Source of the DNA: Neodothiora populina
Taxonomy: Eukaryota
DNA: 64,000 bases
Assembly (NCBI RefSeq): GCF_041146345.1
Contig: NW_027191411.1
Span: forward strand, 558,001 to 622,000
Direction of reading: 5' to 3'
Below, piece after piece: positions 2,570 through 64,000 of this stretch; within the stretch, counting starts at the first letter, position 1; the number at the start of each line of letters is the position of its first letter. Under the pieces are notes generated by a model. It saw only the letters and a program-made list of their open reading frames with translations. It searched no databases and was not told the origin of the DNA. The position numbers and the translations under genes are program-made.

Positions 2570-3475
2570 TCACTTCAAACTCTCAAAAAAACTTGGTCCA
2601 CCATAGCTGTTCCCCGCGTGAGTGACAGAGTTGCCACGAAACGTAATATGCCTGTAAACATGATCGTCTGACCCGTCTGACCCCACCATCGTGTACCCGG
2701 CAGCATACTCGTTCCCAAACCTCTGTTTTGAGTGGTCTTCGACAGAGAGGTATTCGAACGTCAGGCCACGCGACTTCGACACCTGAGAGATAGCTTCTTC
2801 GAGGAAGCGATCGCGCTTCTTGGCAGATTGCAAGAGTAATGCGAGGCTGTCGGGTTCGAGTCCTGAAACTTCTTGTCGGCAGAGTGCCACCTGCTTTTGG
2901 TGACTGGCGGGGAAGGTGTCTTCGAGTTCGCTGATGTGACCCGACAATGTACCAAACAGCGAGCTGGAGTGAGATCGGTCGTACAATACCAATGACGCAT
3001 TTTCCGTCATCTCGTGTCCAGCCAGAGCCCTGCCCTGGTATCCGAGTGCGTTCTTCCGTAGTGTCTGGTGTAAGGTTCCCTTGATCGGATCCGCGGACCG
3101 CAGCTCTGCACGGCTGTCGAGGGCTGTACTTTGCTCGGGATTGCCTTCACGCTGGATCTTTCTTCTAGATCTACGTGAAGATGCTTGTGCGTTGTCAAAC
3201 GCCCTATTGATTTGTCCTAGCAACTCCGTAGTATCCTCAAGCTCGGTCGCAGAGCAAGCCGACAGTCGAGCTGTTGACTTTGTGCCTGATGCCTTGGTGT
3301 TGATTTCCATGGCAGCTCCCCAACGCAAGTAACGCAAGTTAATGACCTGCAGCTCGAGGGAGTTCTTGGCAAAGTCTGCCTTAAAGTCCCGACCGAATTG
3401 GATACCTTCGAACGACTTGATACCCTTGGTGTAAAGTTTCGAAACATCTTCGACGGCTTCTCGGGTTCGTGACAT
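2570..3475 (-). CDS. het-S: HET-S/HET-s-like protein: HeLo domain plus C-terminal HET-s-type prion-forming (HRAM) domain
   Basis: SFEGIQFGRDFKADFAKNSLELQVINLRYLRWGAAMEIN aligns without gaps to HET-S CFEYVQLGRHFGRDYERCQLRLDIAKVRLSRWG (recalled sequence). The C-terminus has two pseudo-repeats ending in GN and the tail AGNSYGGPSFF, compared with HET-s IGNEYGGKGFW. ATG at 3475 chosen by alignment. Confidence 0.88.
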   Translation of the reverse strand: MSRTREAVEDVSKLYTKGIKSFEGIQFGRDFKADFAKNSLELQVINLRYLRWGAAMEINTKASGTKSTARLSACSATELEDTTELLGQINRAFDNAQASSRRSRRKIQREGNPEQSTALDSRAELRSADPIKGTLHQTLRKNALGYQGRALAGHEMTENASLVLYDRSHSSSLFGTLSGHISELEDTFPASHQKQVALCRQEVSGLEPDSLALLLQSAKKRDRFLEEAISQVSKSRGLTFEYLSVEDHSKQRFGNEYAAGYTMVGSDGSDDHVYRHITFRGNSVTHAGNSYGGPSFFESLK

Positions 3476-4185
3476 TCTGTGCAGCCGACGTTGTTGAGCA
3501 AAGTGAGTAACACGAAACGTTTTCATTGCGAAGCGATGCTTCACTATAAGGGCTCAACGAACGCAAGACCAGAAGCAATCATAATGTCGGGCAGCAGTAC
3601 AACCGATCTGAAGGTCAGAAGACCATGAGCTGTGACTCGGACACTTATCTTTCAGCTTCATCTGCCAGTCATCACTAGTCGGCCTTATTCCAACGAATAC
3701 ACTCAAGGGGTTGGCAGTTCGTCAGCACCGATCATCTCTTGGATTGCCCAGAACAGGCAAGAGCATATTGAGTTTGGACTTGGCATCTAGTCATGTGCTA
3801 ATGTGAAGTGGCAGCAGATATCTCCTTTTTTGTTACCGGAACCAAGGTCATGTCGCATGTGAGTCGCCAGGGAGGCCGTGAAGCGCAATCTATGAATGCC
3901 ATCCAGTTCGTGATTAGGAGCCGACGGCTATCATGTAAATGATCGCGGAGATACGATGGCAGAATGTGAGATGACAGCTTGTGACCCCCACGCTGCGCCA
4001 AAACCCAGGCGACCGCTGCAGGGAAATGCCGCCATTGGGCGCGAAACGGCTTCATCGCCCACGTCTTCGAGGCTTATCTTGCGCACCAGTATGGTTCGAT
4101 TCAATGCTAAGCACGGCAGCGGCCGCGACACCATTACTGGGCAAGAGATACGAGGATTCGTCATCGTCAGACATCCCAAACTCGA

Positions 4186-5586
4186 TCATCTTCCGAGTGG
4201 TCCAGTGATTGCACCAACCATGACAGCGGCCTCACGCTCCCAGTTGCCGACCTTCACACCTGGTCTGCTCATTGTGCTGGCACCGCTACCACCCCTGCCA
4301 GATGGCAACTCACTGCCTCTAGCGACACAATCCTTGACCATATAAAGTACCCTGTCTTTGTTACTTCTCAGTGTGCGAGCGCTGACGCCGCCTCTGTTCA
4401 GAATCTCCTGAACCCGAGAAGAGAGATTGCTGGCGAGTGTCCGCCAGAAGAACGAGGGCAGGGAAGAGGTGTCCAGAGCCGCTAGTAAAGGTGCAAGGAA
4501 ATTGGATTTGTTGTGAGTTGCGTCGCCCGAAGAGGCGCCAAGAAGAGGATGCACTGGTGTTCGGGTTGTAGAAAGTAGAGATTCCAAGGCGACAATGTTC
4601 TGGCATCGAGAGCTGATCTCCAACAATGTCTGGTCCAAGGTGGGTAGTGTTGCTAAGGCGCGCGCGAGAGATGCGAGACTTGACTGCAACGCTGTCTGTA
4701 GATAAGCCTGCAATGCAGAGATGAGCAGCTGAGGAGCAAAGGAGTCAATCGTCTGGCGTTGCTTGACAGGCGACAGCAAGTAAAGCACATTTAAAGCCGA
4801 GGTCGTCCTGGATTTTGTGTCTTCGTTCTGTGCGAATGTTGCCGCTCCAGGTCCAGCGGCAGACAACGACGGACTCGAAGTCGAAGCGAGCAACGAAGAC
4901 ATGGAAAATTCCCTGACGATCTGCTGTGCTCGAGCCAGCAGTGTCCTTTCGGACGGGTCAACAAAGTCACTCCTTAGAGTAGTAATGATCTTGACTCTGC
5001 CCAATCCTTCTCCTTCTTGATCGGGCGCCGTAGCACCAAACAATTGTCTTAATTGAAGCAAAGTATGCACCGCCGGCACTAATGCTCTGTGAGCCTCTCT
5101 CTTTCCACTATTTTCAGCACTGAATTCTGCCATCTGTCCCTCAAGCTGTCTCCCTAAGGACAGACATCGTCCCACTGCACGCCCTAGTTTTACAGTCGCG
5201 CATAGCCTCTCTGCTGCCAGTCGCACCTGCTCGGCAGCCTCATAACGCTGGACCACATCTCGCTCGAGTCTCTTGTATCCTTCTGTCAAGGCAGCAACTT
5301 GGGCTTCCACCTCGGACAGTATATGGGTTGAGGCTGTGGCACGAGTTTGTGTGTAGCTCAGGAGTGACAGAGCGGACTGGGTGGTCAACGTGTCAATGTG
5401 CGTGTCTACTTCCTGCACATCGAACAAGACCCGTGATAACGGAGTGGTGAGATCAAGAGGAGCATCTGTGGGGTCGTTGGTCGCGAGGATCAGCGTGTTT
5501 GCGAACGCCGTCGCCGAAAAGGAGGGATCCAGGAAGGTCTCGTAGTCGATGTATGATGCATCTCTCTCCGCTGTTGCGTCGGCCAT
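4186..5586 (-). CDS. COG5: Conserved oligomeric Golgi complex subunit 5
   Basis: SYIDYETFLDPSFSATAFANTLILATNDPTDAPLDLTTPLSRVLFDVQEVDTHID N-terminus and SSLPSFFWRTLA...NWEREAAVMV C-terminus, typical of fungal Cog5. Single exon. Confidence 0.88.
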   Translation of the reverse strand: MADATAERDASYIDYETFLDPSFSATAFANTLILATNDPTDAPLDLTTPLSRVLFDVQEVDTHIDTLTTQSALSLLSYTQTRATASTHILSEVEAQVAALTEGYKRLERDVVQRYEAAEQVRLAAERLCATVKLGRAVGRCLSLGRQLEGQMAEFSAENSGKREAHRALVPAVHTLLQLRQLFGATAPDQEGEGLGRVKIITTLRSDFVDPSERTLLARAQQIVREFSMSSLLASTSSPSLSAAGPGAATFAQNEDTKSRTTSALNVLYLLSPVKQRQTIDSFAPQLLISALQAYLQTALQSSLASLARALATLPTLDQTLLEISSRCQNIVALESLLSTTRTPVHPLLGASSGDATHNKSNFLAPLLAALDTSSLPSFFWRTLASNLSSRVQEILNRGGVSARTLRSNKDRVLYMVKDCVARGSELPSGRGGSGASTMSRPGVKVGNWEREAAVMVGAITGPLGR

Positions 5587-6115
5587 GATGCTATTTACTA
5601 CAGCTTGTGACACTGTTGTCGCTATTAATTTGTTCGGGATCAATGCCAATTGCTGCGACGACGGCGACCGTATGGTATACAATAAACAGATGGAGCTGGT
5701 ATAATCCTAGTTTTGTTTGTTTCAAGCTTGAAGCTAGGTATTACGTTGGATATTCACATGTCAACGCCAAGCTCCAGAAGTGATACCCAAGAAGTGCAAC
5801 TACACTGACATCATGCACAGAGGACCTCCTTCCACTAAACATACCATGTAATGAAGAGTAGTCTACTCTACTTTGTCTAGCACTCTATCTTGCATCGTCT
5901 GCGTCATGAAAGTCATCCTGTTTATCGACAGACAAGTGGGTGACTGATCCTGCGATTGTGGCTGGTACGACACCCAATCGATCACTTATGAAATACAATG
6001 GACATCTTCTGTAAGTGTGGTAAAAATAGTTCATCAATGTCGAATGCAACGGGCATTTCGACTAGTAAGAGAAAGGTAACATGACTTTGATCACACAAAA
6101 CAGGTACAGCCTCTT

Positions 6116-9100
6116 TCAACGTCCCATGACGGCGCTCATAAAGCTCTTCTTTCCCTTCTTCTCATCCTTTTCTATGCCTGATCTGCTCTTGACAGAGAGA
6201 GGCAGACTGATGGCGCTGTCTTTCCTGTATCTCCCAGGAGTCATTGTAGAATTGCTGCCTGCTTCCGATGGCGGAAGTGGTGGCAGCGATTCGTCGTCGT
6301 GACGAGTATGTCTACTGCTGCCGTGCTTCTTGGAAGATGCGCTTGACTTCTTCGAATGACGAGACTCCTTGCTTCGATCACGGTGATGCCTCTTGGATTC
6401 TCTGCTGCGGTCGCGGTGGCGTCTGTGACGTGAATCTCGGCTGCGGCTTCGACTGCGACTTCCACTCCGGCTCCTGCTACGATTACGCTCGCGCTCGCGC
6501 TCCTCTTCGTATCGCCGGGTTGCAACGCAGGAGATGCTATCGTCCGGTACCACCGTCTCCGCATACTCGAATTTGCTTGGAGGCTGCGAGCGTCCTAGCA
6601 TACTACTGACAATACTGCTGCCACCTGCTCGAGACTCTGGTAGTTCCATCGCCGACGGTGTCTTGCTCTCTGTCGCACCGTTGTTGTTCCTGCCCAGTAT
6701 ACTTCCAACAATGCTACCAGTGCGGGATTGATGCACTGAATCTATATGGGACTCAGGGAGTGCGACATCCATCCCTGTTGCGACTGAAGTTTTCCTCGAA
6801 CCCGGAAGCGTAATGTCCGCGCCCGTAGCAACAGATGTGTGTCTTGAGTTGGGAAGCGGAACTTCTTGAGCCGAGACCACCGAGGTCTTCTGGGATTCGG
6901 GCAACGCTACATCCATACCGGAGGGCGCGACTGATGTCTTTCGAGACGGAGGTAGCGGTTTCTCGACAGCAGAAAAATATGACGTCCGTCTTGATGCTGG
7001 CAGCGGCATCTCAGCCCCGGAAACCACTGATGTCATCCTCGATGCTGGAAGAGACTGTTCGGCAGCTGACACATAAGACGACGCTCTGGTTGCTGGAAGC
7101 GGCATGTCAGCACCAGACACAACTGAAGTCTTCCTTGATGCCGGGAGAGGCTCGTGAGCCCCTGACACAATCGATGTTTTCCTTGATTCCGGGAGTGGTT
7201 CGTTGGCTCCAGACACCACAGATGTCATCCTCGAAGCTGGTAATGGTTCATTGGCACCAGAAACCACTGATGTTTTCCGCGATGGTGGTAGGGGTTTGTT
7301 TGCGCCAGACACGACTGATCTCTGTCTGGACGCTGTATGAGACTCGTTACCTCTGGTGACAACGGATGTCCTTCGGGACTCTGGCAAAGGTTCGTGGGCT
7401 GCAGACACGACGGAAGTCTTTCTTGATTCCGGTAGTGGCTCATTAGCCCCTGACACGACCGAAGTCTTCCTTGACGCCGGAAGAGGTTCGTTGGCTCCAG
7501 TCACCACAGATGTCTTTCTTGATGAAGCAGGGCGTTCGGTCGCACCTGACACTACAGAAGTGTTTCTTGATGGTGGCAAAAGCTGCGATGCGCCTGATAC
7601 CACTGAGGTACTTCTTGATGGTGGCAGAGGTTGAGAAGCCCCAGTCACAACGGACGTTCTTCTTGACGTGGATGGTGTGCCCGACACTACGGATGTCTGC
7701 CTCGACACCGGTAAGGGCAAGTTAGCTGCAGATACGACCGAAGTCTGTCTTGATTCTGGTAATGGGACATTTGCCGCGGAAAGGTGCTCCGATCGGCTTG
7801 GCCTGATGGTGGCACTGCTTGCTTCCGATTCATGATCGGAAGACTCCTCCCTTTCTCTTGTAGAGCGATGGCTGCGATGACTTCGTCGACTCGCCACACT
7901 TGATCGATCCATTGAGCGATCCCTACGTTCGCTGACTTTCGACCTCGAATCGTCGCCACTCTTACGGCTCGTGCGGCTTACACGACTCGCCCGATCTTCT
8001 GATGGTTCACGAACTTCACTATGCCGACTTCTAACAGAGTGTTTTGATTCCGGCGTTGAGACGTGAGAATGGCTGCTGTGATGTGTTTTGTTAGATCTTG
8101 GGGAGACTGTGCTCATCGCACTGTCGCGTCTTGCCACAACAAGGTCTTGATCGGCCCAATCCTGTTGACTACGACGAGTCTCTGAAGCTGCGCCATCTTC
8201 GATCTGGCGCGAAAGCGGCAGCGTATGAGCTGAGGCAGCAGAAGGTGCGGTCTGCGAGCGTGATGCAAGTGACGGGCGTTGGCTTACAGCTGTCACAGCA
8301 GATGCCGGTACATATTCGACTGCTGATTTAGCTGCAGCTGACGGAGCTCTTGAGGATGCATTGGACGGTGCTTTTGACAGAGCTCGTGAAGCCACCTTCG
8401 AGGGAGCTCTTGAGGAAGTACGTCGGCTCACGGTAGACGCCGGGATATACTCGACATCCTCCGACATGATAGTGGGTGGTCTCGAGTAACTTGAGTATAC
8501 GACGGAAGGTGGGTATTCGGTCGGGGCTTGTGTAGGCGCAAGCGAACGGTATCGGGGTTCTGAATCACCGCTGACGCTTACCTCATCGAATCTGATAGGC
8601 TCAGGGGCCTCCTCAAGAGCAAGTTGTGACCTTGCTTGCCTTGGTGGCGCATAAAATTCCGAGGTGGTCACAGGAACATTCCTCTCGTATGCTGAGTCCG
8701 GAGCTCGGGATGCGGTGCGATACGACTTCCTCGAACGTATACTCCTAGCGTCATCGGGTACGCTGTACTTTTGGTTCATGGCAGCTTCATAGGCGGCTTC
8801 TTGTCGAGCACTGTCTTGTTCGCTCTTCACCATGGCATAGGCGACAGCGGCACCAGCAGCAGCACCCAGAAGGGTTCCAATCACGCCCTGAGTCGTTGAG
8901 AACCCGGACTTTCTTTCATCCTGTGCTGTAGCAGCAGTGGGTGCAGCAGACCCCTCAGAGACACTTCGGGCGATAGTTGGAGCTTTCGATTTGCCCGAGA
9001 GCGACTTTATCACACTCGGAGCAGAGGTCAATAGACTTGACTTGTTACTCCTTGAAGTGACTGTGGACCTTGCATCATCAAATGCTTCTGGGTCATCACT

Positions 9101-9582
9101 GCGTCTCTGCCAACCTAAAATGTGACTACGATTGGAATACTCCATGCGGTCGTCGGCATTCTCACGAAAAATCACTTCGATGCTGTTTCCATCCAGATCT
9201 GTTACGGCTGCATTGAATATCGTGCCATCTTCACCTCTCGAGGCTGGGGCACCATTCGGGTATCCTCCGGCCTTCAATGCCGCAGCGTAGAAGTCTCGAA
9301 CCGCCGCTCGACTTGTTGCAGAAAATGCCAAATGAGCAGTGGTTGGTGTTATACTATGTGAAATCAAATAAGCTGATATGTGGCGGCAAGATGCCAGCTA
9401 TGGGATCACACTCACCCTGTGCGCTCGGAGCTAAGAAAGAAGTCGGCGTCGTCAACTCCGAAGCCAACCTGATTACCCTGTTCTCCTATATATCGATATC
9501 CGAGAGGTTGGAGAGCAGACAAGAAGAATGAGCAAGCTTGGGGAAGATGGGAGACGGTAAGACCGATATGTGAGAATGGCAT
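6116..9582 (-). CDS. Glyoxalase/VOC-fold N-terminal domain fused to a long Ser/Arg-rich disordered region with tandem repeats (2 exons; intron 9354-9415)
   Basis: Exon 1 MPFSHIGLTVSHLPQACSFFLSALQPLGYRYIG... joins via GTGAGT..CATAG in frame to ITPTTAHLAFSATSRAAVRDFYAAALKAGG...FNAAVTDLDGNSIEV (VOC motifs). One hydrophobic stretch (GTLLGAAAGAAVAYAM) follows. Confidence 0.85.
6732..7780 (-). repeat. Coding tandem repeat, ~22 x 48 bp (16 aa; consensus SGANEPLPASRKTSVV)
   Basis: Counted from the translation, SAANVPLPESRQTSVV through TGMDVALPESHIDSVH; the copies are diverged at DNA level. Confidence 0.93.
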
Positions 9583-41512: not shown

Positions 41513-44500
41513 ATGGCTCTCAACCCACAAGACGGTCGACGTTCGACATCTCCATCATTGAGCGCAGGCCGTTCATCGCCGGGACTGCGTACTCCTCGCC
41601 GAGTCGAGGACGGTATGTGCGTTTGGGAGTAACATAGAGTATCAGCTCTGTCTGACATGGCCAGGTCTGCATTCAAAGGACAAGGCATTCCGCCGCTATG
41701 CTGTTGCCATTGAGCGAGCTCTTTCCTCATTTGATGCTGCGCAGCAAGAATGGGCAGACTATATCGCATTCTTGGCTCGTTTACTGAAGGTCTATAAGAA
41801 GCAGAGCACACAACTAGTTGTAGTCATCCACTTATGATAAAAGTAGGCCGTTCAATTTCCTCCTCCGAATATCGAAGCGTTGCCGCAAGAAAGCACGATC
41901 GCACTAAGGTTGTCGCAATGCTTGAATCCCGCATTGCCGTCAGGGGTGCATCAGAAAGCTCTGGAAGTCTACTCTGCCATTCTCTCCATTCTTGGGACTG
42001 AAGGTTTGGGCAATAGCCTGCATGTATACTTGCCGAGTCTCTTGCCTGTGCCTTCGTTCGCATCGTTGTCTGTTCGCCCATTATATTACGCCATTTTCGA
42101 GGAGTACATCGTCAAACTCAAGCCCTCCGACTTGCGATCTGCCACCAAGTCGTTGATCCTGTGTCTGCTTCCTGGCATCGAAGATGAGACAAGCGAAGAT
42201 TTCGAAAGAGCATTGCAAATCATCGACAGTCTCCGGAAAGCGACGTCGAGAGACGCGGCGGACGTCACCGAGTGCGAGACGAAGGATGGCTATTTCTGGC
42301 AATGCTTTTTTCTGGCCGTAATCACAAACCCATCTCGACGTCAAGGTGCTTTGGCATATCTCACACGTAGACTCCCCAATTTCTCGCCCGTTAAAGAATC
42401 GGAGCTTGTAGACGAAAACACAGACAGCCCGCACTCTGGCCTCTCACCTGCAGCTGAAGCTGTCATCACACCTGAGCCAGGTCTTCTTATGCGCTGTTTT
42501 GCTGCTGGTCTCCAAGATGCACATCTGCTCGTCCAACGTGGCTTTCTTGATCTACTGGTCACGCATCTACCCCTCCACTCCTCGCTCTTCCGGCGACGGC
42601 TGAGGGTTGACGACATGGATCTAGTCACACTCGCAGCAGTACGTACCGTCCTCAGAAGAGATATGAGTCTGAACCGGAGACTTTGGTCATGGTTCCTAGG
42701 GCCCGATCCAGCAACCAATGACTCTGAGGATCTCCAGCCTCAGTCCCCGCCTGACTCTCGACAAACCTCCACGAACAACATCATATCTGGACCAGCGGCT
42801 TACTTCCAGGAAAATGGTTCAGCTTCTCTGCGAAGAAGTATCATGCTGATGCTGGGTCGTCGTAGTGCTAGTTCTATCGAGACGGCTCGCCCGTTCCGAG
42901 TCTGTCTGTCCTTGATGGACCGCTGGGAGATTGGTGGATTGATAGTGCCGCATATCCTACTTCCGGCGCTTGAAAGTGCCTATGAATTCAGCTTATCAGG
43001 CTCGCAAGGTCAGGTCGACGAGGTTGTCCGAAGCGCAAGCCTTTTCTTTGACGGGGTTGAGAGCAGGTTGATCTGGTCCAGAATCATGCAAGTGATGCTC
43101 TCAGCCTTTGATTATGCTGTGTCCGATGTCAAAGTGGCTAGACACAAGATAAATTTCCTGAGGTTCACCACTAGTCGATTTGACATCAAGGAGGAAGAGA
43201 TGCTATCACAGCATATCCCAGCCATCCTTTTGGTTCTGTATGCTCAGCTATCGACGATCGTAAAATCAGAAGCGAGCATCGATCAAGGATTCCTCACGTC
43301 CGTTCTTCTTTTGGCCCAAAGCTGGCTTCGCTTGATCCCTGGGCGTGTCTTTCAATCTGTCAAGCATACCACTGACGACGCGGAGAGCTTTGTCCCTTGG
43401 AGCCCAAAGAATTCTGTAGCTACCACACGACTCACCATCGACTCTTATCTGCAGACCGAAGAGGAAGTACAAGCAACGACCCCCACTTTGTCATCAGTGG
43501 TGGATCACATAGTCGGAAACCTGGCAATCATTCTGAAGTTAGCACTTAGCAATGTCACCTTGGCGAGTCAATTGACTCCCATCGCGGAGGCTATCGCGCT
43601 CATAGCATCAGAGGTTCCTGATTCTCCAGCTCTCAGGTGTGCTGATCTGTATATCACATTCAGAGATGTTTTATCAAAAGATCCCAACGACGATCACTCA
43701 GCTTTCCCTGTGGTGAATTCGATGATGACGGTCCTTGCGACGACGGTAACAAGGAAACAAGCCCCTTACTTTGACCAAAGGCAAATCTCCGATCTGCAAG
43801 CAGGGTCACTGCGCCACATATGGGTCCACCTCTCACCTTTCAGGCCGAAGTTTCATCTCGAAGCAGTGCGTCTGATATGGCAGCTGGAAAGGCTGTCCAA
43901 ATCGCAACATCGGGTAGAAGCGCGTCTTGCCATGCTGGTCAGTCAGCACGCTGGGATCGACAGTGCTGAGGTTGCTGGCCGATTCTGTGTCCTTTGGGAG
44001 CACACAATGCAGAGTCTGGCGCACCGAAGTGAGGGCCAAGGGAGAGGCCTTACTCGTCGGTCCAGTGCAATGCCTTCACAAAGTGTCTCCGAAACTGGTG
44101 TAGACGCAGAGAAGGTTTTGACGCGACCTCTACTTATACTATTGGACAGCCTACAGGTAGAAGGCACTGGTGCCTCCGACGTCATCCGCTCCTGGTTGCA
44201 GGCCTTGCCTTCTCTGGACCGAGTATTCTACATTCTACTCTCCAGACTGCAGGATGATCTGGATGCTTATTCACACAGCTCGAGTGAAACTTCAGCAGCG
44301 AAACGCCAGCAACGAGACATGCATCAAAGCCTGGATGATGTTGTATTTTGTCTTCAGCATATTCGCAACATCCTTCGTTGTCCTTCTTCGCATACATGGA
44401 TTGTCCTAGCCAACCTGAAGTTGAAAGCATCCAAATCTCCGCAACCTAGCACTACGGCCACAGAGATGCTGGCTCTTACATGTCTCAAAGCTTTAGCTCT

Positions 44501-47156
44501 TCGAGGCGACGGCGCGACCGAGACTGTACATCATGCATCTTTGACTGTCCTGCAAGCTTTACTCGCCGGACCGAATTACGAGGCCTTGCATGAATTAAGG
44601 ATCGACGACACCTTGATCGATCTACTCTCTAGATCATTGGCTGATCCCATCAGTTCACTTCAGACCGTTTACCTCCAAGCAATATCTACAGCACTGAAAG
44701 TCGGGCTCTTGCCTCCTCTGGACTTACCTGGAGCTAGACGACCATCATCTAGTGGCTTTGCACGTCTCTCGGTCACTGCAGAGATAAAGGAAATTTCCAT
44801 GAGCAATCGAGCTGTTGGACCGCCCTCTGGCCTGCTCAACTGCTTGCGAATCGGCTTATCTTCAGTCAACGCACGGTTGTACCTGGATCATTGGGTTGGG
44901 TTCTTAGCGGAGGTGCTGCCACTCTACGCCGATGCAGTGTTTGCAAGCTTGTTACCGCTCGTGGAGGGGATCTGTAAACAAGTCGGTATAGCTTTCACAT
45001 ATCTCAAAGAAGCATCTCGTGGAGTGACGAGACCTGGTACTGGTGTGCCAGTGTCATCTCTTGCAGCACTGTTGCATGGTCTCGAGCTAGTATTGGCCCA
45101 TGTACATCGCCTGTTCCAGGGCGAGGAGGTGTCAAGCCCAACAACCAAATCGCCCGACCATCCTCCTGGGTTTTTTGGTACAATGGTATCCGGTGTCTTC
45201 GCGTCAGAGGGTCCTCCGACCAAGACAAGCAGAATCAACAGTAGACTTACCATGATTCTTTCCTTCCAAGACGCTATACGTACTTGCTTCTCTATCTGGG
45301 CTTGGGCAAGTCAAAGCAGTTCCAGTGGCGATATCGATTCGGCATGTGCTGCGACGACCTCCCTGAATGCGTTGAAATTGCGGAACAAGACTAGGAGAAT
45401 ACTAGAAAATCTCTTTGCTGCCGAAGAGCTCGAGTGCTTGGAGACACTGGCACTGCTTTGGTCTCGGCCCAAGGACGGACACAGAGATGAATCTGAAGCT
45501 GTCTTTAACCTTCTGTTGGTGCTGGATGGCTCGAAACCAAAACACACCGTGCCCATCATCATCAATGCACTATACAGTAGAACAAACATTGACGCCCTGG
45601 ACCTGGCAAGAAGATCGAGTTTGACATCTGATCTGACTACTCTGGAAGTCATATCATTCCTTCTCAGCTACACAAGGGCTATAGAAGATGACGCTACGGA
45701 CGAGATCTGGACAGACTGCATGGTGTTCCTGCGAGACGTCTTGTCCAATCCCCTACCTCATCGACAGATTCTGCCCGGACTACTGGAGTACACTGTGTTA
45801 CTTGCTGAAAAAATTGAACATACGAATTTTGGAGACTTGCGCAAGATGCGACGCGATCTGGGAGTAAGTGTCTCTAAATTGCCATGCTATGAACTTCGCT
45901 AACCTTTGCAGGACATATTTATCCGACTCCTGACTGCGACCTTAACCGCAAGGCCGTTATCAAGTCAATTCGACACCTCACAGCCAAGGGCGGCTGACGA
46001 TCTAGTCTCAAGTTTGCTTTACATAACGCCAAAGTTGCAAACCATTTTGCAGAGCAGTGATCGTATTCTGAGCGCCGTGGATATCATGTCGCGTAGCGTC
46101 ATCACTCCCTCTATACACGCCAAATCTTTCCCGGAAAACATCAGTATCGAGTATCTAAAATTATTCGAGCTGATCGCGCAGGAGGGCTCGACTTCTAAAA
46201 TTTGGAAGAAGGATTTGACCGATGCTTTTTACAACTCACGCCTATTGATCAGCTCTGCTGATTTGGTGCAGGATGGTTGGCTGCCGCTGATCCGCAAATG
46301 GGCTCTCAGTGACAGTACCCGTCTTCAAGAGCTGCTCGCGCGCCTTACAGTCCCTTCAACAGCCGGTATCATGTTCGGCGTTGGCGCGAACGCTGCGCGA
46401 CTAGAAGCAGATCGTAGAACACAATTGACACTGCGACGACTTGTCCTTCTTCTGCTCGCGTGCGAGCAAGACGCCTTTGTCAACAATCTTGCTCTGATAC
46501 TGCATTGGCTCTTCGACCTATGTGCTGCAGACGCTTCTTCATCGCCATCATCCGCAACACGAGCCGAGATTTTCATGGTCTTCCGGGCTTTGCTTCTGTC
46601 TTTCTCCTCGATCCAGCTGTCTGCGGTCTGGCCTATACTCAACGATATCCTACCAGCTGCACTGAACTCGTGTATCGGAAACAACTCGTCTCGCGAGATA
46701 TACGGCAATCTGTCTCTACTGCAGGCTTGTCGATTACTTGATCTACTGACCACTCTCTCGCCGGATGAGTTCCAATTACATGCCTGGCTGTACCTAACAG
46801 ACACGATCGACGCGGTCTACAGGCCTGTAGACCTCACTTCCGTGGCATTGGCAGACGGAGTCGCTGATGTTTTGAGCGCCGAGAACATCGACCAATCAAC
46901 ATATCCTACGTCATTGACTGCTCCCACACAGAGCTCCGCGGAAACTCGTGTTCCATATCTCAACGCAACACACATTGACGGCGCAGATGCAAAAGCAATG
47001 CGCCGAGATGACTTTGTCAAAGGTGTTTTGCATCCATTCTTAAGCCAGCTGAGCATGTACGCTTATGAAGCAACATATCACATGGGGGAGCCTGATATCC
47101 AGGCTTGTAGACGTAGTCTGTTGGAGGATGTGCTTGACGAGAGCACTATGGCTTAA
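41513..47156 (+). CDS. DOP1: Dopey/Dop1 (DopA) Golgi-endosome trafficking protein; 4 exons
   Basis: DKAFRRYAVAIERALSSFD...EWADYIAFLARLLK, RLSQCLNPALPSGVHQKALEVY, RRDMSLNRRLWSWFLG, PFRVCLSLMDRWEIG; C-terminal FQLHAWLYLTDTIDAVY. Confidence 0.95.
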
Positions 47157-59056: not shown

Positions 59057-62000
59057 TCACGTGCCGGAGTATGAACTGTCATCCAGCCACTGGGCTCTTT
59101 CTCTTTCCTTGTGAGAGCGCACTATAGCAGGATCACGCTTGTGACTGAGAGTGCGGATCATATGACCCGTCTTCCAAAGCACGAGTTTCAGACGCTCGGT
59201 CACTCTCTTCACACGGAACTCGACCTTGCCCATACCGACAAAACCTTCGTAGGTAGGTTGATGTTCTCGTTCCGAAAACCGATCATCGAACAGGGAAGCT
59301 GAACACGCAGTCTGGGAGAACCGAGCGCGGTAGTCCAATGAGCGTGTCCGTTCTGCGTCGAGCGAATGCAAACGAGACGTTGATAAGTTTGGAAATCCAC
59401 CCGGCAGGCGCGAGCGCAAGGCGTTGATATGCTTGCGAAAAGATCTGCGCTTCTCAGAACTATTGGACGTCGAGTCGGAGAAGAATGAACATACTTCGTC
59501 CAGATTGAGCGCAATATGTGGTATGAGAGCAGTACTTCGATATCTGTCACCAGCCTTGTTTGAAGTCTCCGGCACAATACTGATCCGGAGTCCTGATTTA
59601 GTTCTGTAGCTCGTGAGGCCAATTTTGCGTGAGATAGAGCCGATCAGAGAGGATTTAGAGACACCACGAGTTTCAATGGCAGGTTCAGCCATTGTGGACG
59701 CCTCGTGCCATATTGGCAAGCGGCTGGCAAGGGAACTGCTTGCTCTAGCTGTTCCACAAGTATCCTCAACGTTAGTGTTATCGCCTCTCTCTTCATAGGA
59801 TATTCTGCTTCGACGCAAGATCGTAGAGGCACTAGTGTTGCGACGAAGAATTGGATCTGGGAAGTCGATATCGATGTCCAGAGTCTTGCTATTCCACGGA
59901 TAATTCTCATCGAGATTCCAGGGTCGTGAATGATGTGTTATTGGTCCCATAGGGGTTATGTCGGCAGATGCAGGATAACCATAGTGCATTTCGTTGTCGA
60001 TACCGTTCAATGAGCGAACCCTTAGCAGCGCAGACTTCCGAGACTGTAGCTCTGATACCGAGCAAGCAGACTTAGTGCTTGTACCCAGTGTTGTTGTGTT
60101 CGCGTCTTGTTCAATATCGCTATAAGGAAGACCCTCGATATCTTCAGGCAGTGGAGGAAGTTCTTGAGATGTCTTCGGCGTTCTTTTCCTCTCTAGAGCC
60201 GTGGAATCATGTGTGCCATTTGTCACGATGTCTTCTGCCATTGCAGCCAACTGACGGAGGCCGGTGGAAGAACGAGCAAGGCCTTCACTATCAGGTGGAT
60301 TCCCGAGAAAATGTATCTCATCGAGGGTCTCTCTGACAGCCTGGTCATTCGCGATTGCACTCCCGAACGTTAGGTGTTTGATAGATGGCAACCATGCTGA
60401 GAGCCGCTCAGACAATGCTGCGACAGAAGGCACGGAGAGTCGATTCGCATCACGTGTAAGGCTAAGCAATTCGTCTGCTGAAAGAGGGCCAGACATCGGT
60501 CGTGACGACGAGTTGCGGGTCCAAATTGACTGACTTCTGGCTCCATTCAGGCTACTGGGTCTTTCTGTATGGCCGGCCGAGTTTGTGACTTCGTAGTGCG
60601 CCAGCAGGTCCGAGGACTCGCAGTCCATGAATCCGCTGCTCTCCTTTGCCACATCTATCGCAGCATCTTCGCTTTCGCTAGGGTCACCGTAGAATTGTTC
60701 GGGAACCTGGAAGTCATCTGGTTTGTCGAAGAAGCTGGCATATCTCTCACGTAACGCTTCGGTAGATGATGGACGTAGAGGAAAGGGACAATGGATGCTC
60801 GCGGACTTACGACCCCTTGCTATGTCGGTGGTCTCCGATGTGCAAGATACCAAAGCGTCGTTGAGTTTACCAATAAGGTCAAGACGACTGAAGTTCAGCG
60901 ATGGAATATTACGAAGCTCAGCGAGAGTCATCCTTGGAGCTCGAGCTGGCAGGTAGCTTGCAGGTGATAGACCTTCGACTCGTCGCGACGTCTCAAGTGA
61001 TTGCTTAGGATGAATGAGCGAAGGCATTGTCAGTCCGAGACCTGATGATGACGATCTGTGACCCTTGATGCTTATATCCTCTTGCGAGTCTTCCTTCAGA
61101 CCCGGTAAGTGCCCAGGGCTTGAGCTCATGCCAGGGTATCTCAAGTCAGCATTGCGAAGATCTTTCAATGTTCGTGTTGGATCAGTATGGTCGTTAGGCC
61201 AAATTGATTGACGACGTGGGAAAGACCGACGGATAAACGACGAAAGATCTGTGCTTCGTGGATTGTCTTGATTGACGATCGGAGCATCGCATTTCCTGAT
61301 TTGTAAAGGTGAAATTTTCTCAACGCGAAAGAGAGACTCTCGAGTGGAGTTCAAGTCGATCAAGCGTTCAGTCGCGTCTTCAGCTCGACGCGGCAGAAAG
61401 TCGACATTAGTCGCAAGGCCTATCATTCGGGGCTTGCCATGGTCTGCAGTACTGGGGACTGACATTCTTACTGCGACGTCAGTCACAATTTCGGATCCGG
61501 TATCTTGATCGTTAAGAAGGCTAAGATCGTACGGTAGGGAGAATCTTTGGATGCTAAGTTCTGAATTCCATTGTTCTGAAAGAGGCCGTGACCTCGGGCT
61601 CGGAGTAGCTGCTCGCTCTTCAGGGAGTGATCCTGACAATCTGGGATCATCACTCATGGCTAGGACAGGGTCTGTTTGGCTGACAAATGGGCTGACAAGT
61701 GAATCACGTGTTGCCCTCTCTCCAGGGCCAAGTGGACTCACGGGACCATCAAGTGATGTCTGCGATTGGTCGTGATGGTCCGTTTCTGCTAAGCCGTCCG
61801 CTATATTCGATTGGCCTGGCGCGATAATGTCGCCCGATATGGCCCAGTCCGATGTAGTGCCTTCCACATGATCCTCTGCGACCTTGGGTACCTTCTGCGA
61901 GGGTCTGGAGACGTGTCTGGTCGGAAGTTGGCCGCCGTCAGTACGGTTGTCCTCTTCACATTCGCGTGCTTCTGATTCCAAGTCAAGACGTCTTACTTCT

Positions 62001-63694
62001 GGTAGAGCAACGCTTAGGTTCTCGGATTGCACAGCTTCGCTGATACCTGTAACATGTGCTGAGGCCGGTACAGTGTTCGTCTTTGACAATGCATACGTGA
62101 GATTTGCAGAAGGCTCAAGGTCAATCGGTGCATCAACAGACGTGCGAAATGCAGGCAACTCGATCGGCTGGAGAGCCTGGTGTTGACGTATCACATTCGG
62201 TGATATTGACGTCGCTGGGTTCTCAGACAACTTTGAATTTTCGTCGCCAAGCGCGGCATACATGGGCTTGACGTTTCCAGATGCTTGTCGCGATATCAGA
62301 GCTCCTGCACTTGGGGACTTCGGCTGCACCTTGTCTTCCAATATACATTTGATTCGCTGCACTAGACATCCGCGTTCCTGAGCGGCATCTGCTGCATCCA
62401 ACTCAAAAATCTGACCAGTCTCTTCGGCATATGTGAGATAGTTGGGGAACCCATGAGGCTCGGTATGCTTATCGGAAGGCACTGCCACTGTTGTGTCGAC
62501 AATTATAGGACCTCTAGCCATATGGGAGTATCCAACATCACTTGGAGTCGGAGGGTTTGAGGACGGCGTAGCGGAAGAACCTTTTTCTGACGACGATGGT
62601 AACGAGTTAGCTTGAGGAGGAGCATTCCGTGACCGAGAAGAACGTTCTCCGAAGGTTGGCACAGCATTCACTAGATCCTTCCGGGAATCCATGTATCGTG
62701 GATCGTGGGAAGGAGGACCTTGGTATCGTGGTTCAAAGTGGGGACTTGTGGCATGATGGCTCTTTTGCGATGGTTTCTGTGTGTAGCAATAGCTCGACCT
62801 TTGGTGAACGCCGTATCGCTGGGCAACCGGCCCATCAGTAGCACAGGAAGCATGAGTTTGAAGAGGTCTTTCAGGTCGAGGGTATGCATGACCGTATGGA
62901 AGACCTTGACTGCGATTATACCCATCCATCAACAGATAAGATTCATCCCTCGGAGGGGCCTGAGTATATACAGGTGGATATGGTTGCTCCATTGGGTCAC
63001 TCAACGCCGGAGATGGAGCTCGATAACCTGGGCGCCTCAGTCGAGCCGGGTACGCGTAAGCATTCCGCTGAAACGAATGAGGCCCACTACCTTGACTTCT
63101 TAGACTCGCAGCTGATCTGTGTGAAGTAAGTCCAAAGGCTGGCTGTGGCTGAGTCAAGGAATAAGATCGCCCGTCAGGGGAAAACGGGGCGGTCAGGCGA
63201 CTGTCGTAGGACAATATACTCCCGTTACCCTCTTTGTTTGGCGATCTGTTGTCAGGCACGTAGGAAGGTAACGTTTGCAGAGTCTGCAAGCTCGTCAGTG
63301 AGCCATGTCTACCGTGCCTGCTATGGGCGCCATGTGTCCCCTGGGAGATTGCAGAGACAGCATCCCAAGCTAAACTATTCGAGTTCCTCTTGGAAACCTG
63401 AGACGGCGTATAGCTGTTGTTGCTGTGGCGGGACGATGTGGATAATCGCGCGACATTGTTTCTTCGCCGATGCGCCGGGCGGGGCATGACAGGAAGGCGA
63501 CCGGTGTTGAAGGCTAGATCACCGATGTCTCCGGAGTCAGTAGAAGTCTTCAGCATCGAGAGAACGCCAGACGCAGCGGCTGAAAACATATCACCCCCTG
63601 TTGGCACAGGATTTGCAGATGTCGTTCTTGACCGACCGGACGATATACGAGTCTGGCCGCTTGTAGTGGACAATCTGCGGTCGACGGACGCCAT
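59057..63694 (-). CDS. Large uncharacterised Ser/Pro/Arg-rich, largely disordered protein (1545 aa, single ORF)
   Basis: 4.6-kb uninterrupted ORF, far too long for chance; no recognisable catalytic domain. Confidence 0.8.
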   Translation of the reverse strand: MASVDRRLSTTSGQTRISSGRSRTTSANPVPTGGDMFSAAASGVLSMLKTSTDSGDIGDLAFNTGRLPVMPRPAHRRRNNVARLSTSSRHSNNSYTPSQVSKRNSNSLAWDAVSAISQGTHGAHSRHGRHGSLTSLQTLQTLPSYVPDNRSPNKEGNGSILSYDSRLTAPFSPDGRSYSLTQPQPAFGLTSHRSAASLRSQGSGPHSFQRNAYAYPARLRRPGYRAPSPALSDPMEQPYPPVYTQAPPRDESYLLMDGYNRSQGLPYGHAYPRPERPLQTHASCATDGPVAQRYGVHQRSSYCYTQKPSQKSHHATSPHFEPRYQGPPSHDPRYMDSRKDLVNAVPTFGERSSRSRNAPPQANSLPSSSEKGSSATPSSNPPTPSDVGYSHMARGPIIVDTTVAVPSDKHTEPHGFPNYLTYAEETGQIFELDAADAAQERGCLVQRIKCILEDKVQPKSPSAGALISRQASGNVKPMYAALGDENSKLSENPATSISPNVIRQHQALQPIELPAFRTSVDAPIDLEPSANLTYALSKTNTVPASAHVTGISEAVQSENLSVALPEVRRLDLESEARECEEDNRTDGGQLPTRHVSRPSQKVPKVAEDHVEGTTSDWAISGDIIAPGQSNIADGLAETDHHDQSQTSLDGPVSPLGPGERATRDSLVSPFVSQTDPVLAMSDDPRLSGSLPEERAATPSPRSRPLSEQWNSELSIQRFSLPYDLSLLNDQDTGSEIVTDVAVRMSVPSTADHGKPRMIGLATNVDFLPRRAEDATERLIDLNSTRESLFRVEKISPLQIRKCDAPIVNQDNPRSTDLSSFIRRSFPRRQSIWPNDHTDPTRTLKDLRNADLRYPGMSSSPGHLPGLKEDSQEDISIKGHRSSSSGLGLTMPSLIHPKQSLETSRRVEGLSPASYLPARAPRMTLAELRNIPSLNFSRLDLIGKLNDALVSCTSETTDIARGRKSASIHCPFPLRPSSTEALRERYASFFDKPDDFQVPEQFYGDPSESEDAAIDVAKESSGFMDCESSDLLAHYEVTNSAGHTERPSSLNGARSQSIWTRNSSSRPMSGPLSADELLSLTRDANRLSVPSVAALSERLSAWLPSIKHLTFGSAIANDQAVRETLDEIHFLGNPPDSEGLARSSTGLRQLAAMAEDIVTNGTHDSTALERKRTPKTSQELPPLPEDIEGLPYSDIEQDANTTTLGTSTKSACSVSELQSRKSALLRVRSLNGIDNEMHYGYPASADITPMGPITHHSRPWNLDENYPWNSKTLDIDIDFPDPILRRNTSASTILRRSRISYEERGDNTNVEDTCGTARASSSLASRLPIWHEASTMAEPAIETRGVSKSSLIGSISRKIGLTSYRTKSGLRISIVPETSNKAGDRYRSTALIPHIALNLDEVCSFFSDSTSNSSEKRRSFRKHINALRSRLPGGFPNLSTSRLHSLDAERTRSLDYRARFSQTACSASLFDDRFSEREHQPTYEGFVGMGKVEFRVKRVTERLKLVLWKTGHMIRTLSHKRDPAIVRSHKERERAQWLDDSSYSGT

Positions 63695-64000
63695 TATGAG
63701 CTAAAATAGGTGTAGAAGAAATTAATCTTATCCAAATGACTTCCACTTGCGGACCTGAGTGATCGAAGTAGAGAAAGCGAGTGAGAAGATGAAAAGTAGT
63801 GAGACTACATGTGTTCGACCATGATCAACAAACCAAGACAAGGTCATCGGGTGGAATTGGAGGGTTTGAGGTATCGAGTATAAGAATATCCACCACGCCC
63901 GGTTCTGAATATGGAAGTCTCGCAGTTAACATTGAGGCAAGTGCAATAGGCTGGCCCTACCTTACCGTGTGATGAGGGAGGTACGACTCTGTCCCGCGCG

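Follow-up and report, generated by a model that had tools for sequence, protein, structure and literature searches.

A HET-S-family gene with a charged N-terminal helix in place of the hydrophobic membrane-inserting helix

In HET-S, residues from about 1 to 34 form a membrane segment that is expelled when the tail of the protein converts to amyloid and that is then inserted into the membrane, and a single change in the HeLo domain yields the harmless prion HET-s (PMC3531502). The locus described here raises the question of whether the passage from toxin to harmless amyloid trigger or sink has been made more than once, since it encodes a HeLo-plus-amyloid protein with a polar N-terminal helix, a natural test of this point that also bears on how much helix hydrophobicity killing requires. 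The favoured answer, held at a probability of roughly 0.45 on the basis of alignments, a structure model and analogy with Podospora, is that the gene encodes a derived, non-pore-forming HET-s-like protein, which would be amyloid-competent and unable to insert as a transmembrane helix.

The gene, its two domains and its surroundings

The gene is a single-exon open reading frame (ORF) at 2570..3475 on the minus strand, with 301 codons and a stop (2570-2572), in which a HeLo domain is followed by a HET-s-type amyloid tail. It lies in a window of 64 kb, the whole stretch of DNA that was analysed, and its protein is called the query below. Pfam matches the HeLo domain (PF14479) at residues 12-210 (2846..3442, minus strand) over profile positions 10-199 of 205, with an E-value of 2.9e-20 and 73.4 bits against a cut-off of 23.2. 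Relatives score higher, at 99-185 bits compared with the query's 73, and their matches begin at profile position 1-6 instead of 10. Among the sequences of solved structures, phmmer matched three entries and no others, all of them HET-S/HET-s N-terminal domains (2wvo, 2wvq and 2wvn; E 7.1e-9 to 1.1e-6). The query was also modelled with AlphaFold2 from an alignment of 86 homologues, picked from 151 rows and consisting of roughly full-length HeLo-plus-tail rows and the three closest fragments; the model has a mean pLDDT of 90.1 and a pTM of 0.82. When it was compared with the PDB by Foldseek, the top four matches were HET-S/HET-s HeLo structures (2wvo/2wvn/2wvq; E 7.5e-9 to 5.2e-8), and the fifth reached only E 0.17. 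The preliminary description of this DNA had proposed holding a structure model against HET-S, and the fold does match, with TM-scores of 0.79-0.85 to the HeLo structures (normalised to the target). The query belongs to the HeLo domain both by sequence and by predicted fold.

The tail carries two amyloid repeats, r1 at residues 238-258 (2702..2764, minus strand) and r2 at residues 272-292, the latter followed by GPSFF (2600..2662, minus strand). Both were detected by a repeat HMM built from 170 homologue repeat instances and scanned on six frames of the window (i-E 0.015 for r1 and 1.5e-5 for r2), which bears out the earlier statement that the amyloid domain is intact; no third repeat was found in these frames, the next best match having an E-value of 0.34. 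In the model, each repeat forms four short strands, with r1 and r2 in register (modelled strands at 238-241 and 250-253 in r1, and at 272-275 and 284-287 in r2). The HET-s-related amyloid motif (HRAM) is described as a pair of pseudo-repeats of 21 residues in which position 19 is Gly and positions 5, 8, 10, 16 and 18 are apolar (PMC4518210). Four of the five apolar positions are kept in r1, where G254 stands at position 19, F240, L243, V245 and F253 are apolar and Q251 occupies position 16, and four of five in r2, with G288 at position 19, apolar Y274, I277, F279 and A287, and T285 at position 16. Sequence and model together indicate that the query has the pair of pseudo-repeats expected of a HET-S-type effector (HeLo plus HRAM). 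The Pfam profile of the region, HET-s_218-289 (PF11558), gives only 12.1 bits on the query (E 0.2), below its cut-off of 32.2. Because relatives fail as well, with 16.4 bits for P0164, 10.2 for P0016 and no match for P0163 and P0013, this profile is too narrow to decide. A PDB search with the tail alone yielded chance matches only, at E 0.4 or worse.

By its sequence and predicted structure, the gene is a member of the HET-S family, with a HeLo execution domain and a two-repeat beta-solenoid amyloid tail. HET-S of Podospora anserina, which forms pores and carries a beta-solenoid prion-forming domain, resembles the query in having a HeLo domain, as judged by sequence (E 7.1e-9) and fold, a similar length (301 aa in the query) and a C-terminal tail made up of two pseudo-repeats of 21 residues that close with G-N-x-Y-G. 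The query differs from it in sequence, with about 22% identity, in its charged N-terminal helix, in the lack of an adjacent NLR gene, in a tail that scores below the PF11558 threshold, and in the replacement of a conserved Trp: codon 162 (2990..2992, minus strand) encodes Leu at a site where 79 of 82 full-length homologues have the near-invariant Trp.

The flanking genes recognised by a Pfam scan, both on the minus strand, are Nrap (3-1709) and COG5 (4186-5706). Among the 21 long ORFs of the window that were scanned, 15 match families, all of housekeeping types, e.g., exportin, DnaJ-TPR, UCH, RNase T2, MON1-type longin and DOP1, and 6 match nothing. None of the 21 contains NACHT or NB-ARC, and no NLR partner is present in the window. 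An adjacent NLR accompanies 98 of 155 HeLo-related amyloid proteins and is thus common, not obligatory (PMC4518210), so the lack of one here is compatible with membership of the HET-S type. For two very long ORFs of the minus strand, at 6116-9397 (1093 codons) and 59057-63700 (1547 codons), Pfam returns nothing at E 0.01 or better. The DOP1/Dopey homologue at 41847-47156 on the plus strand consists of two abutting same-frame ORFs, with a break at 45902/45903 across which the DOP1_C profile runs; a short intron that contains a stop, or else an interruption of the gene, probably explains it.

The N-terminal helix and the start of the protein

Residues 1-20 of the query (3416..3475, minus strand) are encoded by codons that run from 3475 down to 3416, ATG TCA CGA ACC ... 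AAG, and read MSRTREAVEDVSKLYTKGIK. According to sequence, alignment and model, they form a charged amphipathic helix at the place where other family members have a hydrophobic, membrane-inserting one. There are eight charged residues among the 20 (R3, R5, E6, E9, D10, K13, K17 and K20), and the best 19-residue Kyte-Doolittle window within residues 1-58 reaches 0.44; the preliminary description, which had counted eight charged residues and seen no hydrophobic run, was correct in this respect. The same measure averages 1.70 in the 82 full-length homologues, and 81 of them have a value of at least 1.0.

The rarity of this composition was assessed with a HMMER search of 1.84 billion representatives, which gave 332 matches at E 1e-3 or better, the best 150 of which were aligned with the query. 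Sixteen of the 151 aligned rows were left out, as the region was absent or fewer than 18 residues preceded the anchor Phe (F22 of the query). In the 18 residues before this Phe, the query has 7 charged residues and a mean hydropathy of -0.72. The 134 homologues, drawn from the best 150 of 332 matches, have a mean of 1.41 (sd 0.39) and a minimum of -0.41, with 0, 1, 2, 3 and 4 charged residues in 25, 86, 17, 2 and 4 rows, respectively. The query is the most polar of the 135 rows from these best 150 of 332 matches, far beyond the variation of the family. A profile of the N-terminal helix, built from 80 homologues, finds no match in the query ORF within an E-value limit of 50; elsewhere in the window, over all six frames, nothing scores better than E 0.72. 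Of more than 100 HeLo domains analysed with TMPRED, nearly all have a predicted transmembrane helix (PMC3531502); this hallmark, a transmembrane-prone hydrophobic N-terminal helix, is missing from the query on hydropathy, charge and profile alike. The charged helix is genuine and a statistical extreme, in a gene that is in other respects typical of the HET-S family.

The helix is modelled at residues 2-23 with a pLDDT of 87-94. Its apolar face comprises A7, V8, V11, L14, Y15, I19, F22 and I25, its other face is charged or polar, and opposite charges are spaced from i to i+4 along R5-E9-K13. The Eisenberg hydrophobic moment is 0.48-0.62 in 18-residue windows starting at residues 1-9, compared with maxima of 0.24-0.31 in eight homologues. 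Such order, with two distinct faces, would be expected of a soluble helix packed in a bundle, and would be less expected under random drift.

The same properties bring in a different explanation, by which the protein would still be a membrane-active executioner: once released, its cationic, amphipathic and surface-seeking helix would stand nearer to MLKL-type bundles or lytic peptides than to a transmembrane anchor. A hydrophobic moment of 0.5-0.62, a net charge of +2 over residues 1-21, and an intact HeLo fold and tail agree with it. The helix values lie just on the globular side of the Eisenberg boundary, which counts against this explanation. So does the fact that the hydrophobic segment is kept by 81 of the 82 homologues. 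A 2025 review reports that the HeLo domain is similar to the four-helix bundle of MLKL, which favours the explanation; the review also holds that, by mutational work, the extreme N-terminal helix is necessary for membrane targeting and death (PMC12881547). In HET-S itself, small drops in transmembrane propensity, even those caused by single changes, accompany the loss of liposome leakage (PMC3531502), and this again argues against an executioner with so polar a helix. Continued killing by this route seems unlikely. Polarity alone does not imply "non-toxic", since an amphipathic helix of cationic character, here with a moment of up to 0.62 and a net charge of +2, can itself be active on membranes.

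The preliminary description had also relied on a gap-free alignment to HET-S with an offset of three residues, in which K and D fall opposite positions 23 and 33. When it was tested on solved chains, phmmer paired query residues 11-31 with residues 14-34 of 2wvo_A, with no gaps and on through the FEx[IV]Q.GR motif (E 7.1e-9), and K20 and D30 were placed as stated. Positions 23 and 33 separate the Podospora alleles, and of the 13 residue differences between HET-s and HET-S, the one at position 33 alone suffices (PMC3531502). Across the 82 homologues, the column of K20 contains D in 34 rows, E in 21, Q in 18, N in 3, S in 3, K in 2 and R in 1, and the column of D30 contains N in 19, H in 18, S in 9, K in 8, D in 7, E in 6, R in 6, Q in 4, T in 3, A in 1 and F in 1, with no Pro. 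Because both sites vary freely in the family, K and D at these places are uninformative on toxicity; D at position 33, shared with 7 of the 82 homologues, is not diagnostic of a HET-s-like state, and the use of the two residues as a sign of harmlessness had to be given up.

Residues 1-35 of the query align without gaps to P0005 and P0163, with a Met-Ser start in common. P0005, P0163 (from Cryomyces minteri) and P0164 begin with Met-Ser or Met-Thr and have exactly as many residues before the FE.IQFGR motif as the query does, and their N-termini are hydrophobic segments rich in Gly, Leu and Pro. From the shared start and the equal length before the motif it follows that the charged residues are positional homologues of the hydrophobic helix, as had been claimed, with no insertion or mis-joined exon.

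Could the real mRNA nevertheless have another start or exon, so that the charged stretch is not the end of the protein? A CAG directly before AATG, pointed out in the preliminary description, is indeed present at 3477 and is a possible acceptor. An in-frame ATG exists at 3526, and a short hydrophobic ORF lies upstream, with 12 codons, MIASGLAFVEPL, and a stop, in another frame (3544..3582, minus strand). Against this, the start at 3526 merely adds 17 residues (3476..3526, minus strand), of which 5 are Lys or Arg and none is Asp or Glu, and which are not hydrophobic. Seven in-frame GT..AG joins between the upstream ORF and the HeLo ORF were enumerated; none gives more than 8 apolar residues, and five retain the charged stretch wholly or partly. 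The most plausible join, with the donor GTTCGT at 3562, the CAG acceptor at 3477 and an 86-base intron, merely prefixes the seven residues MIASGLA to MSRTRE. No join restores a hydrophobic run, in keeping with the earlier statement that an upstream exon would not undo the charged start. Moreover, the family's helix profile finds no counterpart in any frame of the window, and the Met-Ser start and its length are exactly as in P0163. A wrongly assigned N-terminus is thus very improbable.

Some minor points concern the same region. The 17-residue extension has a composition like that of an organelle-targeting presequence. The apolar run of MIASGLAFVEPL resembles the start of canonical HeLo N-termini, e.g., that of P0002, and is too short for a helix; this upstream ORF could be a chance occurrence, a regulatory uORF or a relic. 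The sequencing run X1 (share 0.05) contributed a single 161-base contig covering only 3541-3671, which has no bearing on expression. RIP was considered as a cause of the changes from Gly and Pro to Asp, Glu, Lys and Ser and was rejected: the TpA/ApT index is 0.74 and the second index 1.03, GC content is 0.524 in the gene versus 0.519 in the window, and both Arg codons are CGA, which is no transition product of Gly codons. A compensated frameshift was rejected as well, the remaining two frames of 3416-3475 being likewise not hydrophobic.

Relatives and the question of decay

A word-indexed protein search with the query alone returned nothing at E 1e-3 or better, and a profile of four clade members found five proteins; among metagenome contigs, 337 pattern matches were obtained, of which tblastn confirmed none. 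The gene is that of an ascomycete, and its nearest named relatives come from rock-inhabiting Dothideomycetes, namely Cryomyces minteri, Cryomyces antarcticus, Coniosporium tulheliwenetii and Rachicladosporium; none of the relatives found is more than 44% identical to the query. P0163 (Cryomyces minteri, 306 aa) and P0164 (298 aa) share 38-39% identity with the query over 94-99% of the length, the same architecture, the same repeat type with an r2 that starts with His, and a Gly-rich linker. Unlike the query, they have a canonical hydrophobic N-terminus and keep the conserved Trp. Because these nearest full-length relatives are hydrophobic, the charged helix is a derived trait.

One distant homologue, P0040 (294 aa, from a 1735-base metagenome contig), also has a polar N-terminus, with 4 charged residues in 18 and a hydropathy of -0.29, together with two repeats. 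It is the only other HeLo-plus-tail row that is clearly polar N-terminally among the best 150 of 332 matches, and it differs from the query in its remoteness, its very long branch (2.14) and an insertion in the FEYIQLGR motif. P0040 raises the possibility that the hydrophobic helix has been lost more than once.

By a rival account, the gene would be a young pseudogene, whose function was lost, perhaps after the loss of its NLR partner, and which is now drifting, its frame still open because little time has elapsed; a decaying copy would be of little value for the question posed above. Conservation was therefore compared between regions, with conserved-class columns defined as those whose residue class is the same in 70% or more of the full-length homologues, 82 in number. 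In the helix, the query retains 6 of 13 such columns, against a homologue mean of 0.85, and none of the 82 homologues is lower. In the rest of the HeLo domain it retains 53 of 67 (0.79; homologue mean 0.87, sd 0.05; 7 of 82 lower), and in the amyloid tail 10 of 13 (homologue mean 0.77; 31 of 82 lower). The difference between the helix and the rest of the HeLo domain gives a Fisher p of 0.033. On balance, the remodelling is specific to the helix; the tail is unremarkable, and the core of the HeLo domain, though somewhat relaxed, stays within the range of the family.

Maximum-likelihood analysis of 31 rows gives the query a terminal branch of 0.88, against a median of 0.83. With moderate support, the query is placed in this tree beside P0002/P0003 (94/90), in a six-row group with P0163, P0164 and P0151. 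Relative-rate counts with P0004 and P0006 as outgroups give 43-51 unique changes in the query compared with 18-23 in P0163/P0164 (p 0.0003-0.014), although the P0163 clade has short branches, which weakens the contrast, and the topology behind these tests is unsure. In the helix alone, the counts with the same outgroups are 5-8 for the query and 0-1 for P0163/P0164. Tajima tests with P0002 and P0003 as outgroups were discarded as invalid, since the tree sets both beside the query.

The stop-to-stop frame of the HeLo ORF extends over 2570..3553 (minus strand), with 327 codons free of stops, and this intact frame argues against old decay. The loss of the family-defining hydrophobic helix, Leu in place of Trp162, HeLo conservation at the low end of the family, a lower Pfam score than in relatives, and the missing NLR in the window all fit decay as well, and the database relatives of the clade are partly fragmentary (P0005, P0151, P0001, P0011 and P0165). 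On the other hand, no frameshift against its relatives occurs over the 301 residues of the query, the amyloid tail stands at the family average, the terminal branch is at the median, and the model is confident. The substitutions in the helix are, moreover, ordered into a polar and an apolar face and not scattered, and gene calling or short contigs may account for the fragments among the relatives. Recent loss of function is judged less likely than the favoured reading of a derived HET-s-like protein.

The fragmentary entries deserve a brief description. Cryomyces minteri has, besides the full-length P0163, a near-identical P0005 with an internal gap and without r2. P0151 and P0001 are missing some 50-60 residues at the start, the Coniosporium tulheliwenetii entry about 50, and P0011 and P0165 are pieces. 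These entries reflect either decay of the family in black fungi or errors of gene models.

A proposed function and its counterpart in Podospora

The interpretation offered by the preliminary description is partly supported, in the homology of the helix, the amyloid repeats, the derived state and the lack of a rescuing exon, and has lost the argument from positions 23 and 33. In the lineage of the query, helix 1 has been recoded residue for residue, with no indel, from a hydrophobic sequence rich in Gly, Ala and Leu to a charged amphipathic one, such that the face packing into the HeLo bundle was kept and the opposite face came to consist of R, E, D and K. The HeLo domain would presumably keep folding in soluble form, and the tail could go on adopting the amyloid fold by templating; the helix, even if released, would presumably be unable to serve as a transmembrane segment. 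The outcome, amyloid competence without pore formation, would be the functional state of Podospora HET-s, attained here through a change of another kind and far greater extent. A protein of this sort might serve as a prion-like trigger or provide a sink for a matching NLR signal. The more specific proposition that this state arose in a Dothideomycete-like fungus by recoding of the whole membrane helix, and not by a point change, is regarded as doubtful.

According to two papers on these proteins, a het-s/het-S system is not known from any fungus other than Podospora (PMC3531502; PMC4344463). A literature search likewise gave no described non-toxic HeLo homologue and no case of a HeLo domain with HET-s in Dothideomycetes. 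If the proposition is true and an allele or paralogue with a hydrophobic helix coexists with the query, this would be the first prion incompatibility of the het-s/het-S kind, or the first amyloid-decoy system, outside Podospora.

By analogy, the query would share with Podospora HET-s, a natural allele that lacks cytotoxicity and persists as the [Het-s] prion, an intact amyloid tail and a HeLo domain unable to form pores. It differs from HET-s in the extent of the change, since its whole helix is recoded, as against 13 differences from HET-S of which a single one is sufficient (PMC3531502). The absence of a neighbouring NLR has a parallel too, because nwd2 is a pseudogene in het-s strains (PMC4344463).
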